Below are positions 25,316-48,843 of a DNA stretch of 49,721 nucleotides, in pieces (within the stretch, counting starts at the first letter, position 1; each line of letters starts with the position of its first letter). Source of the stretch: Psammoneis japonica (Eukaryota). The DNA lies in assembly GCA_008632985.1 (NCBI GenBank), contig QPGO01000345.1:1-49721 (forward strand). The letters are read 5' to 3'. The translations under genes were made by a program, and so were the position numbers. The notes under the pieces were generated by a model. That model had not been told where the DNA came from. It did not search any database and saw only the letters and a program-made list of their open reading frames with translations.

Positions 25316-25439
25316 TGTACGTGTTTCATATCAGTGCTCAACGATACCCGTGCGTGCGTGGTCGGTTCGCGCCACGCATGCAAAAAAAGACGTCGACATT
25401 CTCTCGCATCAATAAATATCAAACATCAACAATTTCACC

Positions 25440-26726
25440 ATGATGAAGTTTAGCAGCCTCGTGTTAGCCGGGCTCGTCCTCCCACGCCTAGCATCCGCCT
25501 TTTCGTTTGCAAGCCCACAAGCCGCTTCCAGCTTTGTGGACATTAGCGAACTTGCGGAACGCGATGTGTACTCCATGGAAGAGTGGGCAGCCCAATGTGG
25601 AGTGCAAGAGGCCGAGGGTTTCGAGCTTACAAGCTATGATGGGAACGACTATTATGCAGCAACGCAAGCGGATCTACCAGCCGGAAGTCCCGTTTTGTTT
25701 GTTCCCAACGACATGATATTTTCGGCTTCAAAATCGGCTCAAGAGTTTGGTCAAGCCCTCGGGGAAGCCGAATATCAGCTAGCCAGCGCTGGGTTGGAAG
25801 AAAAGATTCCCCTCTTTCGCGTCTTTATCAAGATTCTAGTGGAATACCAAAAGGGCAATGAATCTCCCTGGTTTCTCTGGCTGAACTCCTTGCCTCGTTT
25901 CTTCAACAATGGAGCCGCAATGACGTATGCGTGCTTTGATTGTTTGCCACCCTACGCTGGATACTTGAGCCTGCAAGAACGAACCAACTCTGTCAATTTT
26001 CAAAAAGCAGCAAAGCTTGTGCCCATACTCGGCGAGGAAATCACAAGCGATGTTCACACCTTAAAGTGGGCCTACAATGTCGCTACCACTCGAGCCATGG
26101 AGTTGAACGGCGAAAAGTTGATTGCGCCCATGGCGGACTTTTTTAATCACGGTACCGAAACCGAGGTGGAAATTGGTCTTGACGAGGAAGGTAACGTCAT
26201 AGTGTACAGTACAAAGGATGTTCCCGCCGGTACGCCTCTTCGCATGTCCTTGGGTGACTCGACGAATCCTACTCCGCTGTTTGCAAGGTATGGATTCCTG
26301 GACGACTCGTCGCCGGCTACTTTCTGCAAGGCGATGCATCTTCGAACGGAAATGGAAGAGCTCGGTTATGACTTTTCAAATTTGCTCTTTTACAAGGAAA
26401 CAGGAGACGTTTCTCCCGAGGTTTATGACATTTTTCTTTACTCCCTTTTAAAACAGGATCCCGAGAACCAGCAGGCTTTTTACCAAGCTGTCGTGAATGG
26501 CGACGAGGACACCAAGAACCAGTACCACGAGCACTACTATCCCTACACATTGGAAGCCATCAAGAAGCACGTGGATGACACTTTGGCCGAGCTGGACAAT
26601 CTTTCCGCCAAGGCCATGAGCTACGATCCAAGCACGCACCCCCGTGTTCCGGTCATTTTGGCCCACAATGAGTTTGTCAAGCAAACGTTTTTGAGAGTCA
26701 AGGCAAACCTTGATAGCAGCATGTAG
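25440..26726 (+). CDS. Plastid-targeted SET-domain protein lysine methyltransferase (Rubisco LSMT-like family)
   Basis: Signal peptide followed by ASA-F cleavage motif (MMKFSSLVLAGLVLPRLASA|FSF). SET motifs: ATQADLPAGSPVLFVP, WAYNVATTRA, LIAPMADFFNHG, LFARYGF. Intact ORF. Confidence 0.85.
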   Translation: MMKFSSLVLAGLVLPRLASAFSFASPQAASSFVDISELAERDVYSMEEWAAQCGVQEAEGFELTSYDGNDYYAATQADLPAGSPVLFVPNDMIFSASKSAQEFGQALGEAEYQLASAGLEEKIPLFRVFIKILVEYQKGNESPWFLWLNSLPRFFNNGAAMTYACFDCLPPYAGYLSLQERTNSVNFQKAAKLVPILGEEITSDVHTLKWAYNVATTRAMELNGEKLIAPMADFFNHGTETEVEIGLDEEGNVIVYSTKDVPAGTPLRMSLGDSTNPTPLFARYGFLDDSSPATFCKAMHLRTEMEELGYDFSNLLFYKETGDVSPEVYDIFLYSLLKQDPENQQAFYQAVVNGDEDTKNQYHEHYYPYTLEAIKKHVDDTLAELDNLSAKAMSYDPSTHPRVPVILAHNEFVKQTFLRVKANLDSSM

Positions 26727-29499: not shown

Positions 29500-30027
29500 T
29501 GTCAAACACATTCAAACTGGCAGCACCTTTGTCAGTCAGGTTCCTTGATTGGAAAATAAGCAAAGTGTTTCTCCCCTCCAGAAGCCAGAAAGTTGGCAAC
29601 AACAACATCAATTCTCTTGCTGGTGATTGAAGCGACCCTCCCTGTGAACTTTTGGGCGCGGGGGGGGGGGGGGGGGGGGTCTCCAATTTTCCATTGCCTG
29701 TCATCTGTGGGTGGTGAAGGCCTGCTTGTGCTCTGCTCACCTTCTTGCTTTCCAGCCTCCAACTCTTCAGTGGCCCTTGCCTTGAATGACCTCTGCCTTT
29801 CTCACTGAACTGGTTTTTCTTCTGCTCAGCAACCAATCTGAGGCTGTGCTTCTGATCTGGGAGATGCTCTGAAAAAAGCACCACTCTCCCAGCCTGCGCC
29901 ATCATGAAAGACATTTCTGGCAACAGCTTGCCTTGTGCCAAGATTTTCAGTGGTGTCATTTCTGAAAAAATGACATGTTGACATCCCTCTCAAAGTTTGA
30001 GAAGTCTGGTGGGTGAGTTGACACTGC
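29500..30027 (+). repeat. Direct repeat copy 1 (~530 bp, partner at 32662-33231)
   Basis: tgtcaaacaca...ttccattgcctgtcatctgtg...gttgacactgc. The 3' ~340 bp are nearly identical to 32885-33231. Confidence 0.9.
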
Positions 30028-30249
30028 TCTCTCCAGCTGCTCTGAGGGGCCTGGGCCTGCAAGAGCCTCTTCCTCTTCCTCGCTCAAGAGCACTCTTTGT
30101 GCCCCAAAGGCCAGTCTCAAAGGGTTGAGCACAGTTTGGGTGGCTTGCTCAACTGGAGCTGTGGTGGCAGAGCAACCTCCAGGAAGAAGCGCACAAAAGC
30201 AAGAAGCATGGTTTGTGGTGACAGAGCAGCCTCTGTGAGGAGTGCAGAG

Positions 30250-31460
30250 CTGTGCAGTGGCCAGGTGTCAGCCAGCAGAAAAAGTCTCTTCTGACAAAGT
30301 GTTTGCAGAGAACCCTGGCGGCATGGTGTCAGTCAGCAGAAAAAGTCATTTTTGCCAAAGTGTTTGCAGTGCTGTCTTCTGAGCTTGCTTTCCACATCCC
30401 AAGGAACACTCAAAGCATTGAGCGCAGTTTGGGTGGTGGTTTGCTGGTGGAGTGTGGCTGTGGCACCAGAGCAAAATTTAGGCAGCCCATGCAGAGAGGC
30501 CCAGTGTCAAAGTGTTGGCCACAAGAAAAAGTCCCTTCTGCCAGACTTTTTGCACTCTCAGCTTCTGAGCCCACACTTTGCGCACCAATGTGCAACCTCA
30601 AAGGCTTGGGCACAGCTTGGGTGGGTTTCTTTTTGGCTGTGGTTGCACTGGCAGAGCAGCCTCTGAGTGTGCAGAGAACCCCAGTGACTGTGGTTGCACT
30701 GGCAGAGCAGCCTCTGAGTGTGCAGAGAACCCTGGTGAAAAAGTGTCAGCCAGCAGAAAAAGTCACTTCTGCCAAAGTGTTTGCAGTCTTGTCTTCTGAG
30801 CTTGCTTTCCGCATCCCAAGGAGCCATCTCAAAGGGCTGAGCATGGTTTGGGCAGTGGTTTGATGGAGTGTGACTGTGGTGCCAGTGCAAAATTTGGGCA
30901 GCCCATGCAGAGAGGCCCAGTGCGGTCAAAGTGTTGGCCACAAGAAAAAGTCACTTTTGCCAGACTGTTTGCACTCTCAGCTTCTGTGCCCACATTTTGC
31001 ATGCCAGTGTGCAACCTCAAAGGCTTGGGCGCAGTTTGGGTGGGTTTCTTGGCTGTGGTTGCACTGGCAGCAGAGCAGCCTCTGGGTGTGCAGAGAACCC
31101 TGGTGGCAAAGTGTGTCAGCCAGTGGAAAAAGTCACTTCTGCCAAAGTGTTTGCAGTCTCATCTTCTGAACTTGCTTTCCACATCCCCCAAGGAACACTC
31201 AAAGGGCTGAACACAGCTCAGGTTGGCTCTTTCTTGACTGTGGTTGTGGTGGTGGCAGAGCAGCCTCTGTGTGTGCAGAAATCTTGTGTGTGATGACCAG
31301 GTGTCAGCCAGTGGAAAAAGTTGCTTCCAACTGATGCAAATGGTTTGCAGCCCAAGCTTCTGAGCACACTCAGTCTGTCCCCAGGCACAATCTCAATTCA
31401 TTGAGGAGCAAGTGTTGGCCAGCAGCAGAAAAGCCCCTTCTGACAAATTGTCTGCACTCT
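30250..31460. repeat. Degenerate tandem array (~370-430 bp higher-order units with short subrepeats)
   Basis: Recurrent gtgtcagccagcagaaaaagtcacttctgccaaagtgtttgcagt, cagcccatgcagagaggcccagtg and ggttgcactggcagagcagcctctg. Confidence 0.85.
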
Positions 31461-32661
31461 CAGCTTCCTCCACACACCCAAAAGCACAAACTTCTTGAGG
31501 GTCATCTTCTTTTTTTTGGCTCAACATTGCCCCAGCCTGACTGCAGGTGAGTCAGACTTGATCTTTCTATCTGGACAATGGACACCCCAAGTCATCAGCT
31601 GGGAGTTCTGACCAACTCACTCTGGCCCAGGGGTGGCCTTAAAGAGCATTCATTGTGGTTGGCTTGGTCCATCCTCTGTTGTTTTTTTTTTGGCCTGACA
31701 TTGCCCCAGACCAAGAGCAACAAACAAATCAAACAGTTGTCAGCTGAGAGTTCTGGCTGGCTTGCTCACTGCGTGATCCAGAAGCAGACTTTCAAAGTCT
31801 GCCCCTTGTTGAAAGAATTCATTGCAGCTGCCTTCTTGACTCATCTGGAGTTGTTTTTTGGCCCAAAATTGTCCCACGCTGCCAGCTGAGGGGTCTGTCC
31901 AACTCACTGTGTTGTCCCTGGGGGGCTGACTTTGAGAGCATTCATTCTTGTGGTTGCCTTGGTGATGGACACCCCAAGTGCAACAAACTGACCATGCAGT
32001 TGTCAGCCAAGGGCTCCAGCCAATTTGCCAATTTGCTGTGACCCAGGGTTTGTGGGCTTTAAGAGCATTCATTGTGACTGCCTTGGTTCGTCCTGCGGTG
32101 TTGCTTGTTTTGGCTGTGTGATGACACAGCCCAACAGTGGATGCAACATGACATTCCCTCTTGCAAGTGTTGAGCACCTCAAGAGGCAATGAAGTTTGCT
32201 GACATGCAGCAGCTGCTTGCCTTGTTCTTTCCAACCAAGAAGCACATGCAGTTTTTGGAAAAATGGGAGAATTCAACCACACTTCCAATGTTCTGCAACA
32301 ACAGCAGATGGGACACATTGCACCAACAAATGCTGAGCTTTGGGACAGACAACCACAGGCTGGCCCTCAGAAAGGCTGGGAAAACAAGTGCTGCTGCTTA
32401 AGAGTCATCATCTTTGCACACTCATGCTCTGAGGCATCTTGCTTCTGCTGGGATTCTTTCATTCAAGTTTGGTCACAAAATGAACCCCAGGTGAGCTTTG
32501 CTTGATTTTTCTTCTTTCTGCTGGCAACCATCAACAACTTGCCAATTGGAGCATGCAAGTGATGTCACTCCTCCACACATCAAGCACAAAAAGACCAGCA
32601 GTCTCATCAACTTCAAATGTTTCAACAGCTTCTTTGTGCAGCCATTGACCTCCTCTTTTTG

Positions 32662-33231
32662 TGTCAAACACATGCAAGCTGGCAGCACCTGTGTTGGCTG
32701 GGTTCATTGATTGGAGAACAAGCAAAGTGAGCTCCCCTCCAGAAGTCAAAAAGTCAGCAACAATGTTGTCAATTCTGGTGCAGGTGAGCTGGCCCTCTTT
32801 GTGAACTTTTGGGTGGAGAATGTTGTCCAAGATGGAGTCATTTCAGCTGCCTGTCCTTTTTGTGATCTGATTTCCAAGACACTCTTTTCCATTGCCTGTC
32901 ATCTGTGTGGGTGGTGAAGGCCTGCTTGTGCTCTGCTCACCTTCTTGCTTTCCAGCCTCCAACTCTTCAGTGGCCCTTGCCTTGAATGACCTCTGCCTTT
33001 CTTGCTGAGCTGGTCTTTCTTCTGCTCAGCAACCAATCTGAGGCTGTGCTTCTGATCTGGGAGATGCTCTGAAAAAAGCACCATTCTCCCAGCCTGTGCC
33101 ATCATGAAAGACATTTCTGGCAACAGCATGCCTTGTGCCAAGATTTTCAGTGGTGTCATTTCTGAAAAAATGACATGTTGACATCCCTCTCAAAGTTTGA
33201 GAAGTGAGTCTGGTGGGTGAGTTGACACTGC
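32662..33231 (+). repeat. Direct repeat copy 2 (partner at 29500-30027)
   Basis: Near-identical minus-strand ORFs 29492..29959 and 32899..33159 (MTPLKILAQG.LLPEMSF...). Confidence 0.9.
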
Positions 33232-35905
33232 CATCATGACACAGTTCCTGATGACAAGATTTGTTTGCTTGTGATGCTCTTTCTGGAAAAATGTTCTGCT
33301 GGCATCCCTTTTGCAGTTTGAAAAGTCTGACAGGAGGTGAGTCAAGACCCCTTCTCTCACTGGCACTCCAAGGGAGGATCCACAGGTCCCTCATCTTCCT
33401 CAGCCAAATGAGCAAAGTCAGCGGCAGTGTGTGCCCTGTCTCTCTTCTTGACACTCTGGCCACCATTGCCCATGGGGGCAGTGGCTTGGGTGGAGGGCTC
33501 CCCTTTTTGCAGAGCCTGGGCATGCCCTCTGGTTCTGGCACCTTTGTCTGCATCTGGCCAGCTGGGATGTTGTCACAATGTGGTTTGTGTTTGCCTCTCA
33601 CAAACAATGCAGGAGTGCCAGGCTGAATTGCACACTTTTGACAACTGCAAGAACACTCACCTGTCTGCGCCAGCTGCACATTTTCTGTGCTTGCCCACAA
33701 CGTGCACCACCCTGTCATCCCTTTGAGCAAACCCACCACAGATCACCTTGTGGCAGCAAGTCAAGAGCTCTGAACAGCAGCAAAATGGGTTGTCACCACC
33801 CTTTTCACATGGCATGAGATGGAGTGTCTTGGGCTGTGGGAGGTCTGGGACAAGGAGCGCTCTTCTCCTGCATGTTGCAGATGGCCTGGCCATCAGGTCT
33901 GATGGGGGGGGGGGGGGGGCAGTGGCGGGTCTCCTGCTCTAACAGCTTCTGCCATTTGACAGAGATGGGAGGTCTTGGACTGCAGATCTGAGGCAAGGAG
34001 TGTTTGCGTGTTGAAGAAGACCCTGGCCACATCTGAGAGGGGGTGGCACAGAGGGTCTTGCCCTGCTTGAACAGCTCTGTTTCTGCCATCTTGTTCAAGC
34101 CAAGAGCTGGGTGGCACAGCAGTGATTGGTGTGTTGTGAGACCAGCCAGTTGGCAATGTTGATGAGAGAGCAGCAAAAAATGTGGTTGCATTGTGGGCCA
34201 AAAAGCAACAACAACAAAGAGTGCTGACAATGGGATGGCACCAGCACGCCCCTTGCAGACGCATTGAGGGAAAACAAGCTGCAATGCTGGTTGCACACAC
34301 CAGTTGTTCAAACACATGTCACAATCGGTTTTTGATTGACAACACATTTTTGGAAGTGAATGTGCACACATTAAAATGCAGACAAGCAAAATTTCAAATT
34401 GCCAAAATTTTGAACACAAATTTGTTTGTCCTTGGAAATGCAACACCACAATTTTGACCCAAGAAAACTCATCCAAAGCACAACAACCAAACCAATCATC
34501 ACAATCCAAGAAGCAACAACACCATGGCCTTGTGATGCATTGTCAGGCCACAGATCCAGGAGGGCACTGCTTGACTTGCTTCAGCAAGTTCATTGTGTTG
34601 TTGTCATTGCTGCTGCAGCTGTTGAATCTAATTCTTTGTGGCGTGCCTTTCAATGAGCACAGGAGAGAGCACGCAATGATGCACGGTGCAGCAAACCCCA
34701 CTGCCAACAACATTGCCACTGACAGGAGTGCAGGAACCCAAAAAATGGAAGAAGGGGTGAGCACAGTTTGGTGTTGTCATTGCCATCATTCCAGCCATTG
34801 AATCCAATCATTTCATTTTTGCATGCTTTTCAACCATGCATGTCAAAGGACGCAGAGAGCGACAACAGCCTGGAGGCTTCTTTGTCACATGGCGCAGTGC
34901 ACCCCAATGCCAACAATGTTGCCACTGGCAGGAATGGTTGAACCCAAGAAGCAGCAGAGTCCTTCATGGCAGGGGCAGTGAATGGATGTTGGGGTGAAGG
35001 GTGAAGCAAACTGGCTTGATTTTTCTTGACACACATGCACACATGTGTGCATGTCCTTTTCCAAGTGTCCTCAATGCTCAACAGCTCTGCTTTTTGCACT
35101 TCAGCAGAGACATCACAATTGACCACAAACTGGAACATTTGGCAAGTCATCCTCAGAACAGCTCTCTTTTCCTTTTCTGGTGACTCACACCAATTGTTTT
35201 TCCCTCTTGCATGCACTGCCACGGAGCATCCAATGAGGTGCAAAAGAAGAGAGCGTGCAAAACCACCATTCTTGCAGCAAGGGCCACAACAAATCCTTTG
35301 TGAACAAGTCTCAGGATGATGGTGCATGCTGCAAGACAGAGACACAGGAAGAGGCTTGACGATTGAAAGTTTTCTTTTTGCATTGACGATCACAAGAAAC
35401 TGTGTGGTGGAGCGAGTGCTGTGGAACTTCAGCTCCACCAATGTGTGATGACCCAGTTTGTTTGATTGCATCTCAATTGATCCTCTGTTGATGTCATGGT
35501 TGTCAGTGCTGCAGCATGCAAATGCATTGCACCGCAGTTGAGAGTGATGCTGTGCCAGATGCATGGTCCACAGGAACAGAGGAGAGCACTGATTCCTGGT
35601 GTTCCAGAAGCGGGCCGTCCCCCAGAAGATTGGAGGAACCCTCAAACCCAGAAATGTGAGACAGCAACTTGGCACCCAGGAACAAAAACCAGCAACATCC
35701 AAGAAGGACCACCCAGAAATTCACCTGGAGAAAGGTGAAAAATCCAGCAATGTGACAAGCAAAACCCCACCTCCCCAGTGATCTCCTCCAGAAAACACGC
35801 CATGTGGCATCCAAAGTCATGCACAATGAAGTGTGCTCAGGAAATCCAGAAACTCCAAGGACATCATTTCTGGAACTCTCGCGTGCAGTGCAGCCACTGG
35901 ACGAG

Positions 35906-35907
<2 letters not shown>

Positions 35908-35938
<31 letters not shown>
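35908..35938. repeat. (GA)n microsatellite
   Basis: About 15 GA units. Confidence 0.95.
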
Positions 35939-35939
<1 letters not shown>

Positions 35940-36749
35940 AGCAGCACCTGGCATTGTGGAGCAGCAGCCACTTCCTCCAGCAAGTGACAATTGCACTGCT
36001 TCTGCGTAAATTGTCTTGAAAGGAAAAGCATCCATGACCCACAACCTGCCACCATCAAAACATCACATGGAAATGCTGCGGCAACAAGATGATCACTCGT
36101 GCCATCAAATTCCACTTTCTGTGATGATGGCATTCCATGCCATGGACCCTCCTCCACCAAATCCAAGTGTCTGCTCAGTTGGTGCGCTGGTGCAGGTGGT
36201 GCCGGAACACTGCACGGGACAACCTGACAGCAAAGGTGGGGTCAGCTTTGTCACTGAATTCAACACTGCCAATGGCCCAACGAATGTGTGGCACACAGGT
36301 GACAAAAGTCACAACCCCTCTCACTTCAAGAAGAAGACCAACTTGAAGAGAAAGAGCTTTCAAAAAGTCACAACCCCTCTCACTTTAAGAAGAAGACCAA
36401 CTTGAACTTTGCTGAACAGCAATGCTTGCAATGCAGTGTTTGAACATGTCAAGGAGAGTGTCATCCATTGCACACAGAAAGAGTGTGTGCAAGGCATGCA
36501 TTTGACAAGATCTTCAACAGACTGAAACGCAAGGACTGTGGTTCTGAGAGACCTGCCCTGGGCATGTTCGCAATGACAGCACCAGCGGACACACAGCTGA
36601 AGATTGTCAAACCAAGATGGAAGAGAGCAAGCAAGTGGCAAGACACCAAAAGAGTTGAAAACCAGCACAAAGCAGAGCCACACAAGCACAATGACAAGCA
36701 CACTTGCCAAGATCTCAGATGACTGCTGTGCCAAGCAAATGAAGCAGAG

Positions 36750-38330
36750 AGTGCAGGGTGACCCCAGTCACCCAAACACAATGCAGGGATGATCAAATCA
36801 ACTTGTTGATGCTGATCCAGTCCCTGTTGGAGCATCTAGATTTGGGCTTTAGAGAACCGGGAAGAGATGAATTTGAAGAAAAAAGACACGCAGCATCCCA
36901 ACCCCAACATTTTCCTCAACATGAGGTCAACACCCATCCAAACACCTGCCAAGTCCCTGAAGAGCATGCTGAGTGCAAGGGAACAAGAGAACAAGTTGCC
37001 GAGCAGTTGCCTGTCAGGATTCAAGCATCAGAGGAATGGCACTGCAAGGGAGGGTCTAAGAGACAGAGAACGTCAGCAGACAGATTTGTTTCCAATGCCA
37101 AGGAGTGCAAGGGCAAAGGTGCTGCAATGGTCCACAGAATGCTGAAAGAGACAGAATTCAAGACATGGGTGACATTCCTGTTTGCAGAGAACAGCAACGA
37201 ACATTGCTGCAAGAGCTTGGAGAAGAGCTTCTTGAGAGACTGCAGCCTGGGCAAGGACACACCACCTGTCCAAAGACATGACTGGAGGACACTGGACAAG
37301 GCAATGGACGTGCTGCTGAACCATCCTAAAGACAAAATCCTTCCAAGCAACACAATGAGAGGAACAACAAGCACACAAGCAACAACAACAGCAAAATTGA
37401 GAACAAGAGTGAGAGGTCTGGCATTCCAAAGGGCCAGAGCCATGCCCAGAAGAGCAGCCAGAGCAACACTGCAGTGTGTTGCTGCAGCAACCAACCAAAT
37501 CACAAGCTCAAAGATGGAAATCAGGGGACAGAGCCATGTGCAGACATGAGGTGATGACCACCCATTGGCAGACAGTGCCGACACAAGCATTGAGCCACCA
37601 GATCCAACCAATCAACCCGCTCCAGCTGAGGCAAGAGTGCTGCATGGCAAGGCTTGCAACAGGAAAACAAGAGGCCAGAGATGAGCATGAGAACCAAGCC
37701 AACCACAGAAATCAAAGTGGATGAAATCATCCTCAACAATGGCTCCACAACCTCCTGCATGGCAGCAAGCCAGAGACTGGTGCACAATGTGCAACAAGCA
37801 AAGACCAAGGTTGATCTGTTTGTGGGCACAGCAGTGGACACTTTGGATGAAGACTGCACCATGTCTGGATGGGGGGACATGAAGCCGGGGTCACAGAACA
37901 TGACAGCAAGCATCCCCAGTTCAAAAGATGAGAAGAGCAAGCACTGTGTCACATGCAACAACTGAGTGGCATGGATGGCTGAGTTCTGATTGCCAGAGGA
38001 CAAGAAGACTGGCAAACAAGTTGTGGTGTTCAAAGTGAATGACATCAGACCATGTGCCTTTGCACAAAGCAAGAAGTTGTTTGACCACACAAAACATCTC
38101 CAAGAAGCAAGTTGCACACAAGCATGCTGTTTTGCAGAACAAGAACAAGAGAACAAGAAGCACAGGAGTGCAAGGCTCAGGCTGTGCTGCAAAGCTGGAG
38201 CACCCAGTGTGAGGGATTTCAAGCCATTTTTGCATTCAAGCCACCAGGTGAAGAACAGGATGATGGCCATTTGACAGATGATGTTGAAGAAGAAACAAGA
38301 GAAAATGGAAATGTTCTCTGCTGTTGCTGG
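36750..38330 (+). mobile_element. Old degenerate Ty1/copia remnant (gag-protease region) of a different diatom lineage
   Basis: RTLDKAMDVLLNH (gag), EIILNNGSTTS...LVHNVQQAKTKVDL (protease, cf. ILLDNGST), EQENKK..ARLRLCCKAGAPSVRDFK (cf. AR.LY..LG.PS..DFK). No LTRs found. Confidence 0.55.
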
Positions 38331-39493
38331 TTGCAACTAGCAGCCCTGGGTTTGTGGCAAGGATTGTGGACAAAGAGATGCCAGTTGATGATGAAAGCAC
38401 ATGAGGACATCAAACTGTGGAACCCTGAAGCACTTGAGGCCTCATCCAGCTCCAGGTGACGCACAATCCACCATGCAAAAGGGTGCAGTTTAGCATGTCA
38501 AACTCCTTCAAATTTGATTTTTTTGAAAATCGAAATGCAAGTGTGCACACAAACACACGAGCTTTGTGTGCACTTGCCCTTCGATCATTTTTTGAGCGAG
38601 TTCATTGTGCCAAGTGCACAAATGGCCAGTGATGGGAATCAAACCTCCTCTCTGTGCATCACCTGCTGGAGCTGGAACAGGCCTTGAGCACATGTCCCCA
38701 CCATCATGCCAATGTTTCCATCCACAACAATTTGAGAGCATTCATCTGAGACTGTGCAACATGCTTGGAAGGCACGCAAGAGGGAGTTTTGGCAAATTGT
38801 TGGAAGCTGAGTCACGAGGCAAGGAAAATTTGGACAACGCACAAAGATGGCAAAGAGAACATGAAAGATGAGCATGCCACTGGATTGACAGGCAATGAGG
38901 AGCTGCAAGAATTGGCCCTTTAAAAGAGCTGCATTGATGGCTTGCACAAGACATCAAAGATCGGCTGCCCTGCTCCTGTGGCATGGACAAACATGAGTGT
39001 GTGCCCCCCTCATGTGACTCAATGCCAGCCACTGTCCTGAAGCTGTGCTGAGTTGTTGCAGGTTTCTTGCAAGCAGTGCAGACAGCGCCATTTGTGCAAC
39101 ACTGTCAAAGCTTGTGCTGCTCTTCCACCGTGGTGTCAACCGCACAAACCCTGCACACAGGTGGCTCTGTCACAGTGTTGAGTTCTTCGACTTGAATCCT
39201 GAGATGGTCAGCAGCTGGGTTGCAAACCTGGTTGATGGTTGATGGTTCACACAGTGAAGAGAGATTTCATCATGCTCGTGTGGAACATTTTTTGCAGAGC
39301 TTGGCCCAGCAACATGGTCAGCCACTCTCCTGATGATGTGCGGCACGCGCCAGCTTGCAAGTCTGGGGCCAGCGCAACATTGGCATGAGTGGCGGGAGTG
39401 TGCTGGAGCAGCGCCCAGATCATGGGAAATGCAAAGAACCCAGACACACTGAAGAAATGATGCCATCGCTCCTGACATGGCTCATTTGGCAAT

Positions 39494-39582
39494 TCTTTGT
39501 GAGCAAGATTTCATTGTCACCAGTTTCTCTCACCTCTCAGCTCTTTGTGAGCAAGATTTCATTGTCACCAGTTTCTCTCACC
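39494..39582. repeat. 48-bp tandem duplication, second unit interrupted by the copia insertion
   Basis: Unit tctttgtgagcaagatttcattgtcaccagtttctctcacctctcagc starts at 39494 and again at 39542. The second unit resumes as tctcagc at 46709 after the element. Confidence 0.92.
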
Positions 39583-39858
39583 TGACAGGATTTGAACAGG
39601 ATTTGGATGCGCGCGAAGTGTCGCGCGCTGTTTAGTTTACCGCGCACAGTTTTGTGTGCTTTAGTTCCGCGCGTTCACGCGCGATGTAGTTTGCTTTCGA
39701 GCCACAAGGCTCACAAGAATAATAACAGTAGCCCGATTATACCGACTTACACGTCTTTCGGCTCCTGTAACGGTCTCTGAGCGGAGACTCATCTGCTATT
39801 TAGACAGCAGTAAGGAGTTATTGTTTGAATTCTTGCCATTTGCCTTCATTTTCTATCA
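39583..39858 (+). repeat. 5' LTR (276 bp)
   Basis: TGACAGG...TTCTATCA, 270/276 identical to the 3' LTR. Confidence 0.97.
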
Positions 39859-39873
39859 GATTAACAGTCTTGC
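39859..39873 (+). promoter_or_regulatory. Putative primer-binding site complementary to the tRNA-Asn(GUU) anticodon arm
   Basis: GATTAACAGTC directly after the LTR is the reverse complement of GACTGTTAATC. There is no canonical TGG start. Confidence 0.55.
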
Positions 39874-40804
39874 TCATTGTCAACCCATTGAGCAACCGCC
39901 ATCGTCGTCGTTGATTTACCGACGACGCTATTTCAATTCTGCGTGGACCTCCGTATATATTCTACATACATCGGCAAGTCTACGCGCGTTCAATACCAGG
40001 CATCGGCAGGAATTTAACGTCACCGTCAAGTCTCCTTACCGCTGGATATCTGGATTGATTATACTACCTTCGGTCGCTGAAGACTTATATTCAACGGTCA
40101 TATCCAAGTCTATCCTTGATCAACATCCCTTGATATACCTATTCCTCGGTTAACGGTCAAGAACCCTACACATTCAAGGATCTTAGTCGCTGAAGACATA
40201 TATATATATACATGTACATGTCTTCACGGCCAAGAACCTTTATCCACTCTTCGGACTGCGGTTTTGCTGCCACTCTACAAGCACACCGAGTCCATTGCAC
40301 CTGATCTACCCCGGACTGCTGGTGCTCTACAGTTCCACTGGGTCCACGAGGACGACTGTGAGAGCAAGTGGCCGTGATTGCAGCCTGCGTTGGGGCGAGG
40401 GTGCTTTCCCGCGTTTGTTCGTTCGTCCACAGCGCCCCAACGCCTGCGTCAACTGGCCAGCCTGATCGGGAAATCCAACCGACATAAAAACAAGAACGGT
40501 TCGGGGGTCTTGTCCACCTCCAGTCAGCTTGCCTGCAGGGGTTTACAACCCGCTGCTCCGCTCGCAAGCAACCCAAAGCGCCGCTGGCTGCGGGTTCGGA
40601 CGTGCCGGCACAACTCTGCGGACCGGACAGGAAGTTTAGCACTTGACAACGAACGGGACAACAAAGCCCGGCGACTTCTGATTTTAAGATGGTTCAAGAT
40701 TTCAAGTCAAGTCTGTTTCAAGTCAAGTCCATTCTCGCCCAAGTTTCGAGTCCACCTTCGCTTCCCAACCAGAATTGATTGTCCTGACACCACTTTTGTC
40801 TGCC

Positions 40805-41930
40805 ATGGTTCTCACTCGTCAGCAACAAACCGATGGTTTCGAGCATGTTGTTGGAACCGTGCTTGCCCAAGGTGCTGGGAGTCCTCTTCGTTTGGCTTTG
40901 GCCCAAGACGGCACGGACTCGCATCAGGAACTGTTCACGTTCATGCCGCCCCAAATCGACTGGCTTGAGCACGACAACGGCACCAATGCAATCCCTTTGC
41001 CCCGTGGTTACAAGAACATGTTAGCAGCGCTGGTTAGTCTGCACATTGTCAAAGCACACAAAGGTCTTGACGTTGCCAACGACTCCTCTTTGTTCACGCA
41101 TGATGAGTTCCTTGCCTGCCGCCTCAGCCCCGACTGCATGTCTTCTGTGTCCATCGGCAGCTCACCCCTTGCACCTCCACATGTCACCAACCCGACCAAG
41201 GCACGCGACCTGGTGCGAGACTTCAAGCGAGGCATCAAGCGTGATCCCACCGCTTTCACGGCTCTCAAATCCGACAAGCAGTGGCACACTTGGCACACCT
41301 CACTTGTGGCACAAGCCCGTGCCCAAGACGTCGAGTGCATTCTAGACTCATCGTACAAACCGACCAGCCCCGAAGACAAACTGCTCTTTGCTGAACAGCA
41401 AAAGTGCATGTTCGCCGTCTTCGAACGCATCCTTCTCACCGACAAGGGCAAGGCTCTCATTCGCGAAAATGTGGGGTCTTCTGACGCACAGACCGTCTGC
41501 CGCTCCTTGTCTGAGTGCGCGCTTGCCTCCACCCGCGCATCTGTCGAGTCCTCCACCCTGCTCACGCACCTCACCACCGCACGTCTTGGTGATGGCACTT
41601 GGAAAGGTCCGACCCACGGGTTCATCCTTCATTGGCAAGATCAGTTGCGCAAGTGCGAGGCACTCATCCCCCGCCAGTGACCACTTCTCTGAAGGACAGA
41701 AGCGCGTCATGCTCGAGAATGCCGTGCACCCTGTCGAGGAACTCCGTGCTGTCAAGAACCAAGCTGATCAGCATCGTACACAGAGTGGCAAGAGCCTCAC
41801 ATGCGATCAATGCTGTGGCTTGCTCCTCTCCGCGGCAGCTCAGCACGACAGCACGTTTCAACCCAAGACGACACCCAGAGCTCCCCGACGCGCCACACAT
41901 GCACACGACGTCCCCACTCCGAGGAACCGT
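40805..41930 (+). pseudogene. gag: copia gag, frameshifted at ~41670
   Basis: DFKRGIKRDPTAF..LK.DKQW..W...AQARAQDV..ILD, TDKGKALIR, FILHWQDQLR, MLENAV. Confidence 0.85.
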
Positions 41931-44900
41931 CCGACGATGTGTTCTACGACATTGACAGCGACGTTGACGTCCTTCAAGCCAATGCTGCCCACACCCGCGG
42001 TCCCAGCCTCGCCGGTGTCCAATGGAGACGTCTCCCTCCCGACCACCAACGGCTCTGGGATTCGTTGCCCGATTCCTCCAAGGCGATCATCCTTGAGCAT
42101 TCTCGTCCGCCTCCCCGCAACCCGCGAGCCAGCAACTGCCATGAGTCTGTTGCGGCCAACCTTCACGACCAACACCTTGGGAGTGACAGTGATGTCAACT
42201 TGTCCAACACGACTCCTGCTGACTGTGGTGACTCCGCTGCACATGTGGACGCCACTTCGGACAATCCCATCCTGGCGCACCTCACCAAGCGCAAGCCACT
42301 GCCACCCAGTGATCTGCAACGTCTGTTGTCACCCAACCAAGCCCCCAATGCCAGTCGACCGGGGCCATCCGCCGCTTCCTCTGCCCCGCCAGCTCCTGCA
42401 GATGACACAGAACTTGACGGCCGCACTTGCCGCCGCGTCAACAACCACAATGTCATTTGCTCTGCCTCTGCTCATCGCTCCACACGCACTGGCGCTCTAG
42501 TCGATCGTGGGGCCAACGGCGGCATTGCTGGCGACGACGTTCGCGTCATTGCACGCACCTCTCGCCAAGTCGACGTTCAGGGCATTGACGATCACCAATT
42601 GGTGGACATCCCCATTGTCACCGCTGGTGCCGTCATTGAGACCCAGCGTGGTCCCGTCATCGCCATCCTCCATCAGTGCGCATGCACGGGAAAGGGCAAG
42701 ACCATCCATTCCTGCGGCCAGCTCGAATGGCACAAACAGGATGTCAACGATCGCTCTGTCAAGGTGCCCAACGGCTTGCAACGCATTGCCACTCCTGATG
42801 GCTGTGTCATCCCCATTGACATCAAGGCTGGCCTGCCTTGTGTTGCCATGCGACCTTACACTGATGCCGAATGGGACACCCTGCCCCATGTCATCCTCAC
42901 CGGTGATGACACATGGGACCCTTCCGTCCTCGATCACTCTGTCACTGACGACGACCAGTGGTGCGACGCGATCTCTGACCTGCAGGACGATCCCACCGCC
43001 AACCCATTTGACGAATGCGGCAACTGCCGTCACCGTGTCGTTGTCAACGAGACCATCTTGTCCGCTTCCTTGTCTGCCGATCACGCGTCCGCCCTCGATG
43101 ATCACCTCATTCTGAACGACGACGTGTTCTCCGAGTGTCATCTACATGCGATTGACCCCCAGGGCGATGACGTTCCACCTCCGGAGCGCACTGCACAGCC
43201 CAAGGACCCCCCCTTCGAGTCTCTTCGGCCTCACTTTGGCTTCCCACCCACCGATGCGGTCCGTCGCACTTTTGACTGCACCACGCAGTGCGCCCGCATG
43301 CCCGCCGGCACACACCTTCGCAAGGCCTACAAATCACCCAACCCCGCCCTTGATGTGCACCGCCGCAACGAGCCCATCGCCACTGACACCGTTTGTGCCG
43401 ACACCCCGGCCGTCGACCATGGTTGCACCAGCGCCCAACTGTTTGTTGGCACCGAGTCTACCGTCACTGACGTCTACGGCACTGAGACGGACAAAGAGTT
43501 TGTCAACACACTCGAGGATCAGATCCGTGAACGTGGTGCCCCATCCAAACTCATTAGCGACCGTGCTCAAGTTGAGATCAGCAACAAAGTGCTCGGGATC
43601 CTACGCGCCCTCTTCATCTCCAGCTGGCAAAGTGAGCCTCACCAGCAACACCAAAACTTTGCCGAGCGTCGATGCCAGACCGTGAAGCGCATGGCGAACA
43701 CTGTCATGGACCGTTTTGGTTCGCCCGCCCACACATGGCTGCTGGCGCTCATGCACGTGTGCTTCACACTCAACCACACAGCGTCCCCACGTCTCCACTG
43801 GCGCACGCCCCTCGAGACTCTCACTGGATCCACCCCGGACATCAGCCCATTGCTTCGCTTTCACTGGTGGGAACCAGTGTGCTTCCACCTCGATGACTCT
43901 GATTGGCCGTCCGAATCCCGTGAGTTGCGTGGACGCTTCGTTGGCATTGCTGAGCACGTCGGCCACCAGATGACCTTCAAGATCCCATCTGACGAGACTC
44001 AGAAGATCCTCTGCCGGTCCAACGTTCGCTCCGCTGCCCCCGATCCTGCCGTTCGAAACCTGCGTCTTGATCCTCCTGATGGGGAGCCACCTGAACCCAT
44101 CATCAAATCTCGCCATGATGACAACCCCATCGATTCTCCTGATGGGGAGGGTCAGGACACCCAAGATGCCAGTTTTCGATCCGCAAGACATCATTGGACG
44201 TACCTTCCTCATGCAGCCACAAGAGGACGGACAACGCCACAGAGCTCGCATCGTCAAGGCCGTCGAAGACCACGAATGGAAAGTGAACGGCAATCCCGAG
44301 CTCACTAAGTTCGTCTGCTCTGTCAACAATGACGAACCACGAGGAAGTCCTTGCCCACAATGACATCATGAATCACATTGAGCAAGAAGACGAAGACACC
44401 ACCATTTGGAAATTTCGACGCATCGCATCACACGAAGGACCTCTGAAGCCTCACGACCCAACCTGGAAAGGCTCAAGCTACAACATCATGCTTGAATGGG
44501 AAAGTGGGGAGATCACGTCCGAGCCTCTTGCCATCATCGCCAAGGACGACCCCGTCACCTGTGCCATCTGTGCACGAGAGAACGGACTCCTCGACACGGA
44601 TGGCTGGAAGCGGTTCCGCACTGTCGCGAGGCGCCAAAAGAAGCCATTTCGCATGGCCAACCAAGCCAAGCTTCGCTCCTTCCGCACTGCACCTCGCCAC
44701 AAGTGCGGATGCGAAGTTCCCCGGAACTGCAAACACGCCATGTCACTAGACGAACGCAACGGCAACCGCAAGTGGGGAGACGCAACTAATCTCGAGATGG
44801 ACCAACTCGACGAATGCAAAGTCTTCCATGACTGCGGGCCCTTCAAGTCTTCCACTCCTCCTGCGGGACACAAGAAGATCCGAGTGCACCTGGTGCACGA

Positions 44901-46427
44901 CGTGAAACACGACGGTCGCCACAAGGCACGACTCGCAGCCGACGGGCACCTCACGGACGCCACCTGTCGACAGTGTCTGCTCCGGAGTGGTCTCCCTCCG
45001 TGGCCTTCGGCTGATGATTTTCCTGGCCGAACTCAACGAGCTGGAGACATGGGCCACCGACATTGGCAATGCCTGCCTTGAAGCCACCACCAAGGAGAAG
45101 CTTTACATTGCAGCTGGACCCGAATTTGGCAAACTCGAAGGACACATCCTTGTCATCCACAAGGCACTGCATGGACTGCGCAGCTCCGGTCTCCGCTGGC
45201 ACGAGCGCTTCGCCGACTGCCTGCAAGCTGAAGGCTTCTTCCCCTGCCGCGCCGAACCCGACATTTGGATGCGCAGGAACGGCGACCACTGTGAACACAT
45301 TGCCGTTTATGTGGATGACCTCGCCATTGCCATGAAGGACCCTCAATCTTTCGTCGACACTCTCACGGAAAAGTGCAAGTTCAAGCTCAAGGGTGCGGGA
45401 CCCATTGAGTTCCATCTGGGTTGCAACTTTTCCCGGGACCCCGACGGAACCTTGTGCCTGTCTCCGCGCAAGTACATCGAGCGCATGGTCGACAGTTGCG
45501 CCCGACTGTTTGGGGAGAAACCCACCACCAACGCCCTGTCACCTCCAGAGAAGGGTGACCACCCCGAACTGGACACTTCCAAACTGCTGGGACCCGATGG
45601 CATTCACAAGTTCCAGTCTCTTGTTGGTTCACTCCAATGGGCAGTGTCCCTTGGTCGAATTGACATTGCCACGGCTGTCATGTCACTCTCTAGCTTCCGA
45701 GCTGCGCCCCGTCAAGGCCACTTGGATCGTGCCAAACGCGTCTGTGGGTGCCTCTCCAAGATGCGACACGGTGCTCTCCGCGTTCGCACGGAAGAGCCCG
45801 ACTGTTCGGATCTCCCTGCTCCGGCCTGTGAATGGATGCATTCCGTGTGTGGTGAAGCAGAAGAGATGATCCCGAAGGACGCTCCACCGCCCCTTGGCAA
45901 GTTCGTCACTGCCACCCACTACGTCGATGCAAACTTGCACCATTGCATGCTCACCGGACGCTCTGTCATGGGAATGCTCCACTTCCTCAACAAATTCCCG
46001 GCTGATTGGTTCTCCAAGAAACAAGCCACCGTGGAGACTGCAACCTGCGGATCTGAATTTGTTGCCGCAAGGAATTGTGTTGAGCAGATTGTCGACCTGC
46101 GCATCACCCTGCGCCACCTTGGCGTCCCGATCCGCAATGTCAGTTGCATGTTCGGTGACAACAAGTCGGTTGTAGACAGTGCCACCATCCCGCACTCCAA
46201 GTTACACAAGCAACACACCGCACCATCGTTCCACCGTGTGCGTGAGGCAATTGCCTCTGGTTGCCTTGAGTTCCACTTCATCGAAGGCTCCCGCAACCCT
46301 GCTGACATTCTCAGCAAGCATTGGGGTTGCTCCCAAATCTGGGACCTTCTCCGCCCCCTCATGTTCTGGAACTTCATTCCATCCGAAGTCGAATCTGTTT
46401 CTGTGGCTCCTCAAGCAAACTGGGGAG
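41930..46427 (+). pseudogene. pol: copia pol (protease, integrase, RT, RNase H) with several frameshifts and Tyr->Cys/His changes
   Basis: LVDRGANGG (PR), IATDTV / LISDRAQ / SEPHQQHQNFAER (IN DDE), DGRHKARL, DIGNACLEA, KALHGLRSSG, IAVYVDDL (RT), YVDAN, GSEFVA, FGDNKSV, NPADILSK (RNase H). Frame changes at ~44170, ~44335 and ~44960. Confidence 0.93.
46417..46427 (+). promoter_or_regulatory. Short polypurine tract
   Basis: AAACTGGGGAG immediately 5' of the 3' LTR. Confidence 0.65.
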
Positions 46428-46703
46428 TGACAGGATTTGAACAGGATTTGGATGCGCGCGAAGTGTCGCGCGCTGTTTAGTTTACCGCGCACAGTTTTGT
46501 GTGCTTTAGTTCCGCGCGTTCACGCGCGATGCAGTTTGCTTTCGAGCCACAAGGCTCACAAGAATGATGACAGTGGCCCGATTGTACCGACTTACACGTC
46601 TTTCGGCTCCTGTAACGGTCTCTGAGCGGAGACTCATCTGCTATTTAGACAGCAGTAAGGAGTTGTTGTTTGAATTCTTGCCATTTGCCTTCATTTTCTA
46701 TCA
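46428..46703 (+). repeat. 3' LTR (276 bp)
   Basis: Matches 39583-39858 except at 6 positions and is followed by TSD TCACC. Confidence 0.97.
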
Positions 46704-47145
46704 TCACCTCTCAGCTTGATCTCACTCTACAGTGGCATGATGGACGGCGGCATGGAGACAGCAGTAAATCTTATGTCAGTGTCTATACCCGAATGATTTT
46801 TAAAAACCAGCAACCGTTGAGTTATTCTCAACGGAAGTTGAAGTTGATAGTCAATTGATGTTCTAAGACATCACTGCATGTCTGTATGTGTGGTGGCCAC
46901 GCAACGATTTGCTTCTTCTTTCTTCCGTCCTTTGTCCTTTCTCTTCGGCACTCGGCATGGCGTTGCTGTTGGAAACGGTACTGTAGGTAGGTACCCTTGT
47001 TTTGCAACCAAACGGCTTAGCTATGCTTTGTGGATGGACAGTGTTGCACGCTAGAATTGTAAAACGTAGATCTTGGCAATTCCTCTTCACTCACTTGTTT
47101 TACCTCTCATCTCACTTTCTCAAAAGCCGACTCGCTGATTTCATC

Positions 47146-48843
47146 ATGTCGTCGTCGATTCTTCCTTCAAGACCAAGACTTTTTTTGACGACTCTTTTCT
47201 TTGGATTGCTGTTAGTCTCATCAGTGATTGCAGACGATCGACCCAATTTTATTTTCTTGTTTGCGGATGACTTGGGCTTTGGCGATTTGAAATCGTACGG
47301 GCACCCGTATGCACGCACCCCTCACCTAGATCGACTTGCAGCCGAGGGAAGTTCGTTTCGTTATTTTCACGTTGCGGGCTATGTATGCCCCACGTCTCGT
47401 GCAGGTTTTATGACGTCTCGGTATCCCTCGTGGTTTCCCAATTACACGCCAGACTATGGTTTTAAAGGAGCCATGACGGTTACAAAGTTGCTACAGGATG
47501 CCGGCTATGTCACGGGTCATATAGGAAAGTGGAACATTGGTGATCCCAAGCCCGGCAGTTCCGATCGAGATTATCCACCATATGGTATGAGTCATGTTCG
47601 AATTACAGGCGATGGCAACAATTTGCCCGAGGGCAAGGAACATGAACGGTATAGTTTGGCGATTGATTTTGTGGAAAAATACAAGGACCAGCAACCCTTT
47701 TATTTAAATGTTTGGATGTACGCGGTACACTCACCCGTGGAACCACCACGGTATCTGGTGGACATGTTTGATGGACTCAAAGTGAATCGAAGCGACTTTG
47801 ACGAGTATATGCAAAAGAAATTTGACGATATTCGGGGCTTTGGGAAAAGCATTGACTTGGCTATGCAAACATACTTGGGAGAAGTCTATGGCATGGATCA
47901 AGAAATTGGTCGACTGCTGACAAAATTGGATGAATTGGGATTAGCCAACAATACTGTGGTGATGTTTTCCAGTGACAATGGTCCTTCTGTGGTGGATGAA
48001 GCCAAGGAATTTACGAAGGCAAGCTGGGGAGGAGGCTTTCGGGGTGGAAAATTTGAATGGTACGAGGCGGGAATTCGTGTCCCGTTCGTTATTCGTTGGC
48101 CTGGACACATACCTGCCGGCAAGGTCAATAGCGAATCCTTTACATCCGCACTGGATTGGCTACCGACGGTTGCCACTCTGGCTGGAGTGGACGTGCCTTG
48201 GAATTTGACGGAAGGAGAAGACGTGAGCGACATTTGGCTTGGTTCGGATCGGTCTCGTCAGAATCCTACTTTTTACCAACACCCTGGAAAGAGCGACATT
48301 TCCGTGCATTACAATGGATGGAAGTCGTACGATTGGAATCGGGAATTGTACAATCTACGAGAGGATCCAGCAGAAAAGGTAAACCTGTATGAAAGCCGCC
48401 GCGACATTGTCAATGCACTAAAGAATTTGAAGGCTCAGTACAAGGCCACTATACCACTGGATCACAGGTTTGGGAGTCAGTCTGCCGTGGATTTTGATCC
48501 GACAGAGCCCGTAACACGGTGGATCATTCCCGAAGTGCTCCTCGATGGGTCAGCCACGGCAAGCCCAACGCAAGCGGCCAGTGAGTCTCCCAGCATGACA
48601 CCTACCCGATTCCCCTCTTCTTCTCCTCGACCTTCCTCGGCAACAGCAAGCCCCGTTCCAACTCTCGCACCAACAATTACGGAAACAACATCGAGTCCAG
48701 CAGACACGGAATCTCCCACGGCTGCACCTGATAGTCCTGCTACCGAGACGCCATCCTCGAACGCCTCCACGCGGCAGCAGATCACTTATTTCCTTGTCGT
48801 GTCAATTGTTTCCTTGGTTTCATTGTTCTTTGCCGCAAACTAA
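47146..48843 (+). CDS. Secreted, probably membrane/GPI-anchored S1 (formylglycine-dependent) sulfatase
   Basis: Signal peptide, RPNFIFLFADDLGFGD, CPTSRAGFMTSRYP, GYVTGHIGKWNIG, FSSDNG, GGKFEWYEAGIRVPFVIRWPG, ELYNLREDPAE, then an S/T/P-rich stalk and a hydrophobic C-terminus. Likely start ATG at 47146. Confidence 0.92.
   Translation: MSSSILPSRPRLFLTTLFFGLLLVSSVIADDRPNFIFLFADDLGFGDLKSYGHPYARTPHLDRLAAEGSSFRYFHVAGYVCPTSRAGFMTSRYPSWFPNYTPDYGFKGAMTVTKLLQDAGYVTGHIGKWNIGDPKPGSSDRDYPPYGMSHVRITGDGNNLPEGKEHERYSLAIDFVEKYKDQQPFYLNVWMYAVHSPVEPPRYLVDMFDGLKVNRSDFDEYMQKKFDDIRGFGKSIDLAMQTYLGEVYGMDQEIGRLLTKLDELGLANNTVVMFSSDNGPSVVDEAKEFTKASWGGGFRGGKFEWYEAGIRVPFVIRWPGHIPAGKVNSESFTSALDWLPTVATLAGVDVPWNLTEGEDVSDIWLGSDRSRQNPTFYQHPGKSDISVHYNGWKSYDWNRELYNLREDPAEKVNLYESRRDIVNALKNLKAQYKATIPLDHRFGSQSAVDFDPTEPVTRWIIPEVLLDGSATASPTQAASESPSMTPTRFPSSSPRPSSATASPVPTLAPTITETTSSPADTESPTAAPDSPATETPSSNASTRQQITYFLVVSIVSLVSLFFAAN

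Follow-up and report, generated by a model that had tools for sequence, protein, structure and literature searches.

Why should a retrotransposon lose nearly all of its tyrosine residues by missense change rather than by the creation of stop codons? This question is raised by a Ty1/copia long terminal repeat (LTR) retrotransposon at positions 39583-46703 of contig QPGO01000345.1 of Psammoneis japonica (assembly GCA_008632985.1, forward strand). We analysed a stretch of 49,721 nt of this contig, which is called the window below. In the window copy of the element, conserved tyrosines have been replaced by cysteine or histidine throughout gag-pol, and the dinucleotide TpA (TA) has almost disappeared from the DNA. 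We give a probability of roughly 0.7 to the reading that a region-targeted process changed TpA to TpG or CpA on the DNA after integration, and that this process is of the same kind as the TpA hypermutation described in Bigelowiella natans (Mettrop et al., bioRxiv 10.64898/2026.01.13.699255).

The element consists of the following parts; as the sequence TCACC is identical on both sides, both LTRs belong to a single insertion.

39578-39582 and 46704-46708, plus strand: left and right copies of the target-site duplication TCACC, identical 5-bp repeats in the flanks
39583-39858, plus strand: 5' LTR, 276 nt, beginning with TG and ending with CA; 16 TA, TA observed/expected ratio 0.85
39859-40329, plus strand: first 471 nt of the leader, undepleted; 37 TA, observed/expected 1.08
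40330-46427, both strands: hypermutated tract; 31 TA in 6098 bp, observed/expected about 0.1; 445 CG; GC content 0.578
40805-44140, plus strand: gag-protease-integrase part of the polyprotein, frame 2; tblastn with intact relatives matches from 40757
44145-44961, plus strand: continuation of the polyprotein, in frame 0 (44145-44336) and then frame 1 (44338-44961)
44963-46477, plus strand: reverse transcriptase (RT) and RNase H part, frame 2; Pfam RVT_2 with E 2.3e-18 at residues 3-170 of the open reading frame (ORF) from 44987
46428-46703, plus strand: 3' LTR, 276 nt; 10 TA remaining, 6 differences from the 5' LTR

For comparison, we used two sets of relatives. A search with the RT-RNase H ORF gave 2632 relatives, and the best 120 of these, which were 55-69% identical to the query, were used. 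A metagenome scan gave 80 loci with DNA from related copia elements, and 21 of these, with an uninterrupted gag-pol ORF of at least 1800 amino acid residues, served as the intact reference set (locus L050 was omitted as a near-duplicate of L046). The single gag-pol of the window element is collinear with the single ORFs of the 21 intact relatives, as judged by tblastn and alignment, and has an RVT_2-type RT in its C-terminal half. The Pfam integrase domain was detected neither in the query nor in two intact relatives. Among the matches listed, the only named relative of the RT was from the diatom Cylindrotheca fusiformis (66% identity). Neither blastn nor tblastn with six long relatives found a second copy of the element within the window. 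A palindrome around a (TA)6 run lies at 40176-40240, in the undepleted part of the leader.

An earlier reading of the sequence alone had listed 12 peptide motifs in which a normally conserved Tyr appeared as Cys or His. All 12 occur in the translation, and the quoted residues correspond to a majority Tyr in the 21 intact relatives, except the first Cys of DECGNCR, where the majority residue is Phe (7 of 21). At some of the quoted sites, the Tyr majority is weak (6 of 21 at the second Cys of HQCACTGKG, and 12 of 21 in SCMFGDN). The loss is nevertheless clear when strictly conserved columns are counted. In the RT-RNase H part, 12 columns are Tyr in at least 90% of the 120 relatives, and in the query 10 of these have become Cys (6), His (3), or Phe (1), whereas 7 of the 198 other conserved columns are changed. 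Over the whole gag-pol, in which 631 columns are at least 80% conserved across the intact relatives, 5 of 34 Tyr columns are kept and 29 are lost, compared with 45 losses in the 597 non-Tyr columns (Fisher's exact test, p = 6.4e-25). The 29 lost tyrosines became Cys (18, all TGY), His (7, all CAY), and Met, Gly, Trp, and Phe (1 each). Tyr has been lost even from motifs that are invariant across the 21 intact relatives (DIGNAYLEA, KALYGL, and ETATYGSEF). The query polyprotein contains 12 Tyr in 1909 residues (0.63%), compared with 3.08-4.38% in the relatives, and its Cys content is 3.2%, compared with 0.98%. The RVT_2 score is 67 bits in the query and 88-104 bits in the intact relatives.

The direction of change is from Tyr: at the Cys and His sites of the query, Tyr stands both in the 120 RT relatives and in the full-length set of 21 intact ones, against the possibility that active relatives share the Cys and His. 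Contigs of other copies point the same way, with TA at sites such as 45546, 42334, and 41011 (see below). Codon alignment with the intact relatives also showed that the substitutions are concentrated at TA, and other TA-containing codons have changed as the sequence-only reading predicted, with three Leu-to-Pro replacements (all CCA), two Val-to-Ala replacements (GCA), and one Ile-to-Met replacement (ATG). The damage is by missense rather than by stop codons: the in-frame TGA codons at 41678, 41690, and 41765 (all within 41678-41767) are the sole in-frame stops of gag-pol, and no TAA or TAG has arisen. On both strands of 40330-46427, TAA and TAG are nearly absent, and long ORFs are found in all six frames (214 and 242 amino acid residues on the minus strand).

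Could this copia lineage be naturally poor in TA and Tyr, and still functional? Moderate TA poverty does occur in two metagenomic relatives, L020 (observed/expected 0.24) and L035 (0.27). However, 78 of the 80 metagenomic loci have Tyr, and neither Cys nor His, at every strict Tyr column that they cover, and the query has lost invariant motifs and has a broken frame; we therefore regard a native composition as next to impossible. L035 (positions 1-2561 of its contig) has a CpG ratio of 0.77, a GC content of 0.56, and four His at the 12 strict Tyr columns, and the Tyr losses in its RT are nearly all to His, a bias opposite to that of the window copy. We also considered L044, which has four His, as a second partial case, but its CpG is decayed and its TA only mildly low, and L020, in which the strict Tyr columns are free of Cys and His despite the low TA; both were rejected. 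Among the database proteins, P0020 and P0103 have Cys or His at 10 of 26 and 7 of 20 Tyr columns, respectively.

Adenine editing of RNA is another system to which these replacements may be compared. ADAR converts A to I in double-stranded RNA, prefers a U on the 5' side of the edited A, also edits ApA, and acts on one strand per molecule. The changes in the element resemble those made by ADAR, and by the fungal ADAT2/3 (TAD2/TAD3) in mRNA, in the A-to-I(G) direction and in the preference for a 5' U. They differ in that the seven Tyr-to-His and three Leu-to-Pro replacements are T-to-C changes on the sense strand, in that Lys and Asn are spared, and in the six differences between the LTRs (see below). 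Conserved Lys was kept in 22 of 24 columns and conserved Asn in 15 of 17. The changes include one Lys-to-Glu and one Asn-to-Asp replacement, both preceded by a codon ending in T, and the Lys and Asn codons (AAR and AAY) without a preceding T are untouched, against the neighbour preferences of ADAR. ADAR-type editing is thus disfavoured, as the sequence-only reading had argued, and the presence of both TGY and CAY within one copy (18:7) does not fit editing of the sense strand of RNA in general. The hits on both strands are the expected outcome of a process acting on TpA, which is palindromic, in duplex DNA. No RNA data set was found among the sequencing runs listed as matching the stretch.

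The composition of the DNA agrees with the codon changes. The coding part (40805-46427) contains 4.8 TA per kb, with an observed/expected ratio (the dinucleotide count relative to expectation) of 0.11. The 21 intact relatives contain 30.3-76.6 TA per kb (mean 49.4; observed/expected 0.46-0.91), the closest relative, L002, contains 45.9 per kb, and in the RT region of the 80 loci the TA ratio is 0.24-1.12. CpG in the coding part is normal (observed/expected 0.90), and the GC content is 0.579. The span to which the sequence-only reading had assigned the changes (40805-46427) covers the coding part, whereas the depleted tract itself begins at about 40330, within the untranslated leader, and extends to about 46665, that is, into the 3' LTR; the host DNA to the right of the 3' LTR is normal. 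TA is dense through 40328 and then drops in one step, so that the left edge lies between 40328 and 40485. The surviving TA in the tract are evenly spaced, about one per 190 bp, to 46203, with no gradient.

Comparison of the two LTRs showed that the process acts on DNA. The 5' LTR has TA where the 3' LTR has TG at 46566, 46569, 46575, 46584, and 46665, and where it has CA at 46532. Thus, 6 of 32 TpA positions differ, compared with 0 of 242 other positions (Fisher's exact test, p 1.6e-6); the C/G positions, including CpG, are unchanged (0 of 129), and there is no G-to-A excess. As both LTRs were copied from one template and belong to one insertion, at least these six changes arose on DNA. The pair also serves as a clock. 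Zero background differences between the LTRs, set against the loss of about 90% of the TA in the interior, mean that TpA was lost very quickly compared with ordinary mutation; the loss is therefore orders of magnitude faster than background mutation and than CpG decay.

The element is not the only depleted part of the window. Three older tracts, 23.6 kb together, have lost nearly all TA and most CG, and contain TG and CA at 1.4-2.3 times expectation. Over a few hundred bases they give way to normal DNA, in which intact ORFs are found; for example, the intact ORF at 9357-12092 lies 230-280 bp from the ends of the neighbouring tracts. The genes of the window are long uninterrupted ORFs. The tracts, and the protein-like fragments found in the second of them, are as follows.

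5217-9081, no strand: older tract; 20 TA and 68 CG in 3.9 kb
12322-22023, no strand: older tract; 44 TA and 165 CG left
29557-39582, no strand: older tract that reaches the insertion site; in 10 kb, 18 TA and 83 CG remain, TG and CA observed/expected 1.5-2.3
18962-19801, minus strand: truncated copy of Rpn9, a 26S proteasome subunit (Pfam PSD13_N), in the tract 12322-22023
21177-21455, minus strand: glutathione-reductase-like C-terminal fragment (Pyr_redox_dim, E 2.7e-6), at the end of that tract
15387-15827, minus strand: match to the GTP-binding insertion domain of P-element-like transposases (TNP-like_GBD), E 6e-4; 20.6 bits, below the cut-off of 24.8

Compared with human PSMD13 and six homologues, the Rpn9 copy shows replacements of Tyr by His or Cys and of Arg by Cys or Trp. 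The best homologue shares 51% identity with it, and the diatom Grammatophora oceanica is the source of the only homologue with a name; this truncated copy is probably a pseudogene. The remainder of the glutathione-reductase-like gene (a pyridine nucleotide-disulphide oxidoreductase) was not found. The sub-threshold transposase match may hint at the former identity of the tract 12322-22023. When 160 ORFs of the three older tracts were scanned with Pfam, no domains were found other than PSD13_N, Pyr_redox_dim, and the sub-threshold TNP-like_GBD. Long ORFs are expected by chance in these tracts, because only TGA stops remain there.

One of the older tracts can be dated by a local duplication. The segment 20259-20840, inside the tract, has an unmutated twin at 22470-23050, 1.6 kb outside the tract. 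All 15 TA of the twin are lost in the tract copy (8 became TG, 6 CA, and 1 CG), as are 38 of its 39 CG (18 became CA and 16 TG). The two copies are 75.7% identical, and 92.8% identical when purines and pyrimidines are each pooled. At other positions, 32 of 249 A/T and 18 of 203 C/G have changed, with about 5% transversions and about 10% transitions outside YpR (Y, pyrimidine; R, purine); the pair is therefore old. Its full extent is 20241-20841 and 22450-23051, and a part of it is tandemly repeated at 22275-22587. A self-comparison of the window recoded as purines and pyrimidines found no further hidden duplicates. As the signature occurs in a local duplicate and in host-gene fragments, the process is not tied to this copia family, nor, as far as can be seen, to reverse transcription.

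The older tracts might also suggest something slower, a regional mutation bias of silent, methylated, or late-replicating chromatin that erodes TA and CG over long times. The joint loss of TA and CG in the three tracts and the age of the dated pair would agree with such a bias. It does not account for the element, in which about 90% of the interior TA has gone while the 242 non-TpA positions of the LTRs are identical and the CpG ratio stands at 0.90. We consider a slow bias quite improbable as the cause of the TpA loss.

A more serious alternative is that the element was edited during retrotransposition, by an adenine deaminase acting on genomic RNA, on single-stranded complementary DNA (cDNA), or on both in the particle, and was integrated already mutated. 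The leader and the polypurine-rich end of the interior lie on either side of the saturated tract, the 5' LTR is spared, and the 3' LTR is lightly hit. Late in reverse transcription, the 3' LTR can be present as a single-stranded minus-strand copy; hence, differences between the LTRs could also arise in this way. There is, moreover, an excess of sense-strand A-to-G changes at the Tyr codons (18:7, p 0.04; 23:8 with the LTR changes included, p 0.011). On the other hand, TG and CA outcomes are intermixed along the whole tract without a gradient, and the left edge is a step 471 nt within the leader rather than at the primer-binding site. In the 3' LTR, A to G on the plus strand accounts for five of the six changes, contrary to what exposure of the minus strand to an adenine deaminase would give. 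The signature is also present in the 600-bp duplicate and in host-gene fragments, which bear no sign of reverse transcription, and in B. natans the process was observed in place, on integrated DNA. Editing during retrotransposition is thus unlikely in our view, and we infer that the process acted in place, after integration, rather than on cDNA.

We also compared the flanks of the surviving TA in the four depleted tracts (that of the element and the three older ones) with those in the undepleted remainder of the window. The four tracts retain 115 TA, of which 59 are in the context YTAR and 6 in RTAY; the 828 TA outside the tracts include 146 YTAR and 250 RTAY (p 5e-14 and 3e-10 against the survivors, respectively). 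The trend is present in every tract, and it is also seen when the element is compared with the TA contexts of the ORFs of the 21 relatives (p 0.04 each). Scaled for length, TA survival is about 0.27 in YTAR, 0.08 in YTAY, 0.07 in RTAR, and 0.016 in RTAY. RTAY is thus the most mutable context and YTAR the least, and these values are close to those for two independent strand-wise hits if A mutates about three times as readily in T-A-Y as in T-A-R.

The choice of strand supports a preference for T-A-Y only in part. In a hand tally based on inferred ancestral contexts, 17 YTAY sites became TG and 3 became CA, as the preference would predict. At least in part, this local context accounts for Cys being commoner than His, as a Tyr codon is T-A-Y on the sense strand. 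We also considered the transcription strand as the cause of this excess and set it aside: the 17:3 ratio at YTAY is not accompanied by a similar skew at RTAR, so that the data fit neither context alone nor strand alone.

Finally, we considered whether the pattern might be an artefact, that is, faulty assembly or polishing of a high-copy repeat, or wrong base calls where bases in the TA context are modified. One sample (four runs) contains the stretch, and we used contigs from one of its runs (X1), which is possibly the assembly's own data. Over the unique flanks, seven of the eight listed contigs have no mismatch and the eighth has one, with a depth of about 60-70. Over the depleted unique DNA at 35151-39523, six of the seven listed pieces have no mismatch and the seventh has one. 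The element itself is found in 14,010 contigs of the run, with a summed word depth of 64,000-190,000, compared with 60-80 in the flanks, and this extreme depth would favour errors of assembly. The run contains 0.74 of the sampled 31-letter words of 39300-48800, which is above what the unique flanks alone could supply.

The contigs of the other copies bear on the same question. Variant places along the stretch comprise 336 transitions and 53 transversions, and we inspected the best-supported 40 of 408 site by site. At 40618, 40989, 41011, 42334, and 45546, other copies have TA in place of the TG or CA of the window copy. They read CA where the window copy has TG at 40369/70, 40690/1, and 40714/5, and TG where it has CA at 40628/9, 40659/60, 40970/1, and 41844/5; independent hits on one ancestral TA (or CG) would give such adjacent double differences. 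The changes are coherent codon by codon over 6 kb and have sharp edges. In favour of errors, gag-pol has frame breaks near 44150, 44338, and 44961 at short homopolymer runs, where the contigs of other copies are one base shorter, and a run of 18 G lies at 29657-29674. The frame breaks bear no relation to TA. Single extra bases relative to the contigs of other copies occur in homopolymer runs at 40435-40490, 41668, 44150, 44338, and 44960, and these could be genuine indels or else errors made in assembling a high-copy repeat. The agreement with the contigs, which is not an independent proof, argues against a consensus artefact, and we hold an artefact to be very improbable.

The 18-G run stands in place of about 90 bases that are present in a related copy at 32797-32886, and is possibly an assembly artefact. 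It lies in the tract 29557-39582, which also contains direct repeats at 29687-30028 and 32885-33232, about 98% identical and both depleted, and tandem-like repeats at 30091-31363. As the direct repeats share the depleted state, their duplication postdates the mutation. Two 48-nt tandem repeat units are found at 39481-39576, directly left of the insertion, with the element at the start of a third unit. The insertion point is the exact edge between the depleted tract and the normal promoter DNA of a sulfatase gene (47002-48843), whose product had no match above 51% identity in a collection drawing on NCBI, UniRef, and JGI. No tRNA gene that could serve as a tract boundary was found. A TA-free patch of 429 bp (24889-25318; TA observed/expected 0.27, CG 0.64) occurs in normal DNA just upstream of the ORF at 25440-26726.

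Dinucleotide-specific hypermutation is known from several systems. In ascomycetes, repeat-induced point mutation (RIP) causes dinucleotide-specific C:G-to-T:A transitions, in which CpA/TpG becomes TpA, and leaves AT-rich DNA with stop codons. The process in the window is like RIP in being an in-place, dinucleotide-specific transition hypermutation with sharp tract edges and a strong dinucleotide skew. It is unlike RIP in its opposite direction, with TpA changed to CpA/TpG and the GC content raised to 0.58, and TAA or TAG does not arise. In addition, only one copy of the duplicate pair in the window is mutated, and the target in B. natans is single copy.

APOBEC3 proteins convert C to U on the minus-strand cDNA of retroelements and thus cause strand-specific G-to-A changes; APOBEC3G acts so in human immunodeficiency virus. 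Here, too, a retroelement is hypermutated (by a deaminase in the case of APOBEC3) and the damage is fixed in the integrated copy. Unlike APOBEC3 changes, those found here are A:T to G:C at TpA on both strands, they also affect DNA that is not of retroelements, and G-to-A changes are not in excess. The CpG decay of methylated transposons resembles the change of CG to TG/CA in the three older tracts, with 38 of 39 CG lost in the datable pair. It explains the CpG half of their changes only, and the CpG of the young element is untouched.

The closest likeness is to B. natans. There, 231 of 302 new mutations in mutation-accumulation lines fell in two integrated viral regions, at a rate of about 6e-7 per site per generation, some 1000 times the background, and in only some of the lines (10.64898/2026.01.13.699255). 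All but one of these were A to G or T to C, and all of the GC-biased ones changed TpA to TpG/CpA; the genome contains 124 TpA-poor clusters rich in CpA and TpG, RT domains are enriched in the TpA-poor genes, and an ADAT2-like adenine deaminase was proposed there, as a hypothesis, to be the agent (10.64898/2026.01.13.699255). The two cases share the nearly exclusive A-to-G/T-to-C spectrum, the restriction to TpA, delimited tracts beside normal DNA, a speed far above the background, a long-term trace of TpA-poor DNA rich in CpA and TpG, and, in the preferred reading, action on resident DNA. In the window, this spectrum is seen in all six differences of the LTR pair and, as TGY or CAY, in 25 of the 29 Tyr losses. 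The copia element, too, is foreign or selfish DNA; in the older tracts, the 160 ORFs scanned yielded only fragments of host genes and a single weak match to a transposase.

There are also several differences. The target here is an LTR retrotransposon at near-saturation, with a TA ratio of 0.11 compared with 0.45 in the nucleocytoplasmic large DNA virus region of B. natans. The older tracts here have also lost CpG, which the part of the B. natans account used does not mention. Other features of the present case are a flank preference, with RTAY hit more readily than YTAR, and a 5' LTR and leader that were spared. The host is different and is probably a diatom, as diatoms are the source of the closest relatives with a name, both for the RT and for the Rpn9 pseudogene. 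Full-text literature searches found no description of TpA hypermutation besides the B. natans preprint, and searches for diatoms with hypermutation or RIP-like processes found nothing relevant. The near-saturation on a retrotransposon, the sharp tract edges, and the flank rule are new here.

The process would run as follows. On the DNA of the integrated element, A:T-to-G:C transitions would be made at TpA only, until about 90% of the TpA in the 6.1-kb tract had gone. The most likely chemistry would be the conversion of adenine by deamination into hypoxanthine, a base that is read as G, and the agent may be a TadA/ADAT-like deaminase that requires a 5' T and apparently prefers a pyrimidine on the 3' side of the A (T-A-Y). 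The T-A-Y context is reminiscent of U-A-C, the anticodon-loop target of TadA/ADAT. Every protein of the element would be destroyed by Tyr-to-Cys/His and related missense changes, without stops, and the GC content would rise to 58%. Tracts that had been silenced for far longer would lose CpG also, presumably through deamination of 5-methylcytosine, so that each CG and TA would end as TG or CA. The enzyme, the mark that designates a tract, and a role in defence are proposals of this model.

Several observations weigh against the preferred reading of a region-targeted process acting on the DNA after integration. Neither the 5' LTR nor the first 471 nt of the leader has been hit, despite being part of the same repeat family, and nothing in this reading explains the sharp edge at about 40330. 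A saturated interior with a partly hit 3' LTR resembles the profile known for editing of reverse-transcription intermediates. The RTAR sites in the hand tally, based on inferred ancestral contexts, split evenly (8 TG and 8 CA), contrary to the simple flank rule. The polarity of the six LTR differences is taken from the interior and not from an outgroup LTR. Among the contigs listed, none is a long exact match over the element interior, and they come from a run that may be the assembly's own. L035 is the sole partial signature among the 80 metagenomic relatives.

A wider reading, which we offer tentatively and hold to be somewhat more doubtful than probable, is that diatoms and chlorarachniophytes share a tract-targeted defence by adenine deamination, a kind of "reverse RIP", that reads T-A-Y on either strand, is aimed at defined chromatin domains from which the 5' LTR and leader of an element can be left out, and in combination with CpG decay turns every CG and TA of silenced DNA into TG or CA; it may be widespread in algae. 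If so, its relics, being Tyr-less, stop-poor, and GC-enriched, would be misread by homology searches and gene finders. The loss of TAA and TAG produces false long ORFs in six frames, which are traps for gene finders; the replacement of Tyr by Cys or His weakens profile matches; and GC-rich islands of this origin may be mistaken for foreign DNA.

The locus also offers usable handles on the process. The flank rule can be set against candidate deaminases, the tract edges against chromatin marks or small RNAs, and LTR pairs can be used as clocks; this host offers a saturated case on a datable LTR element. A second host would make TpA hypermutation a broader feature of eukaryotic genome defence.

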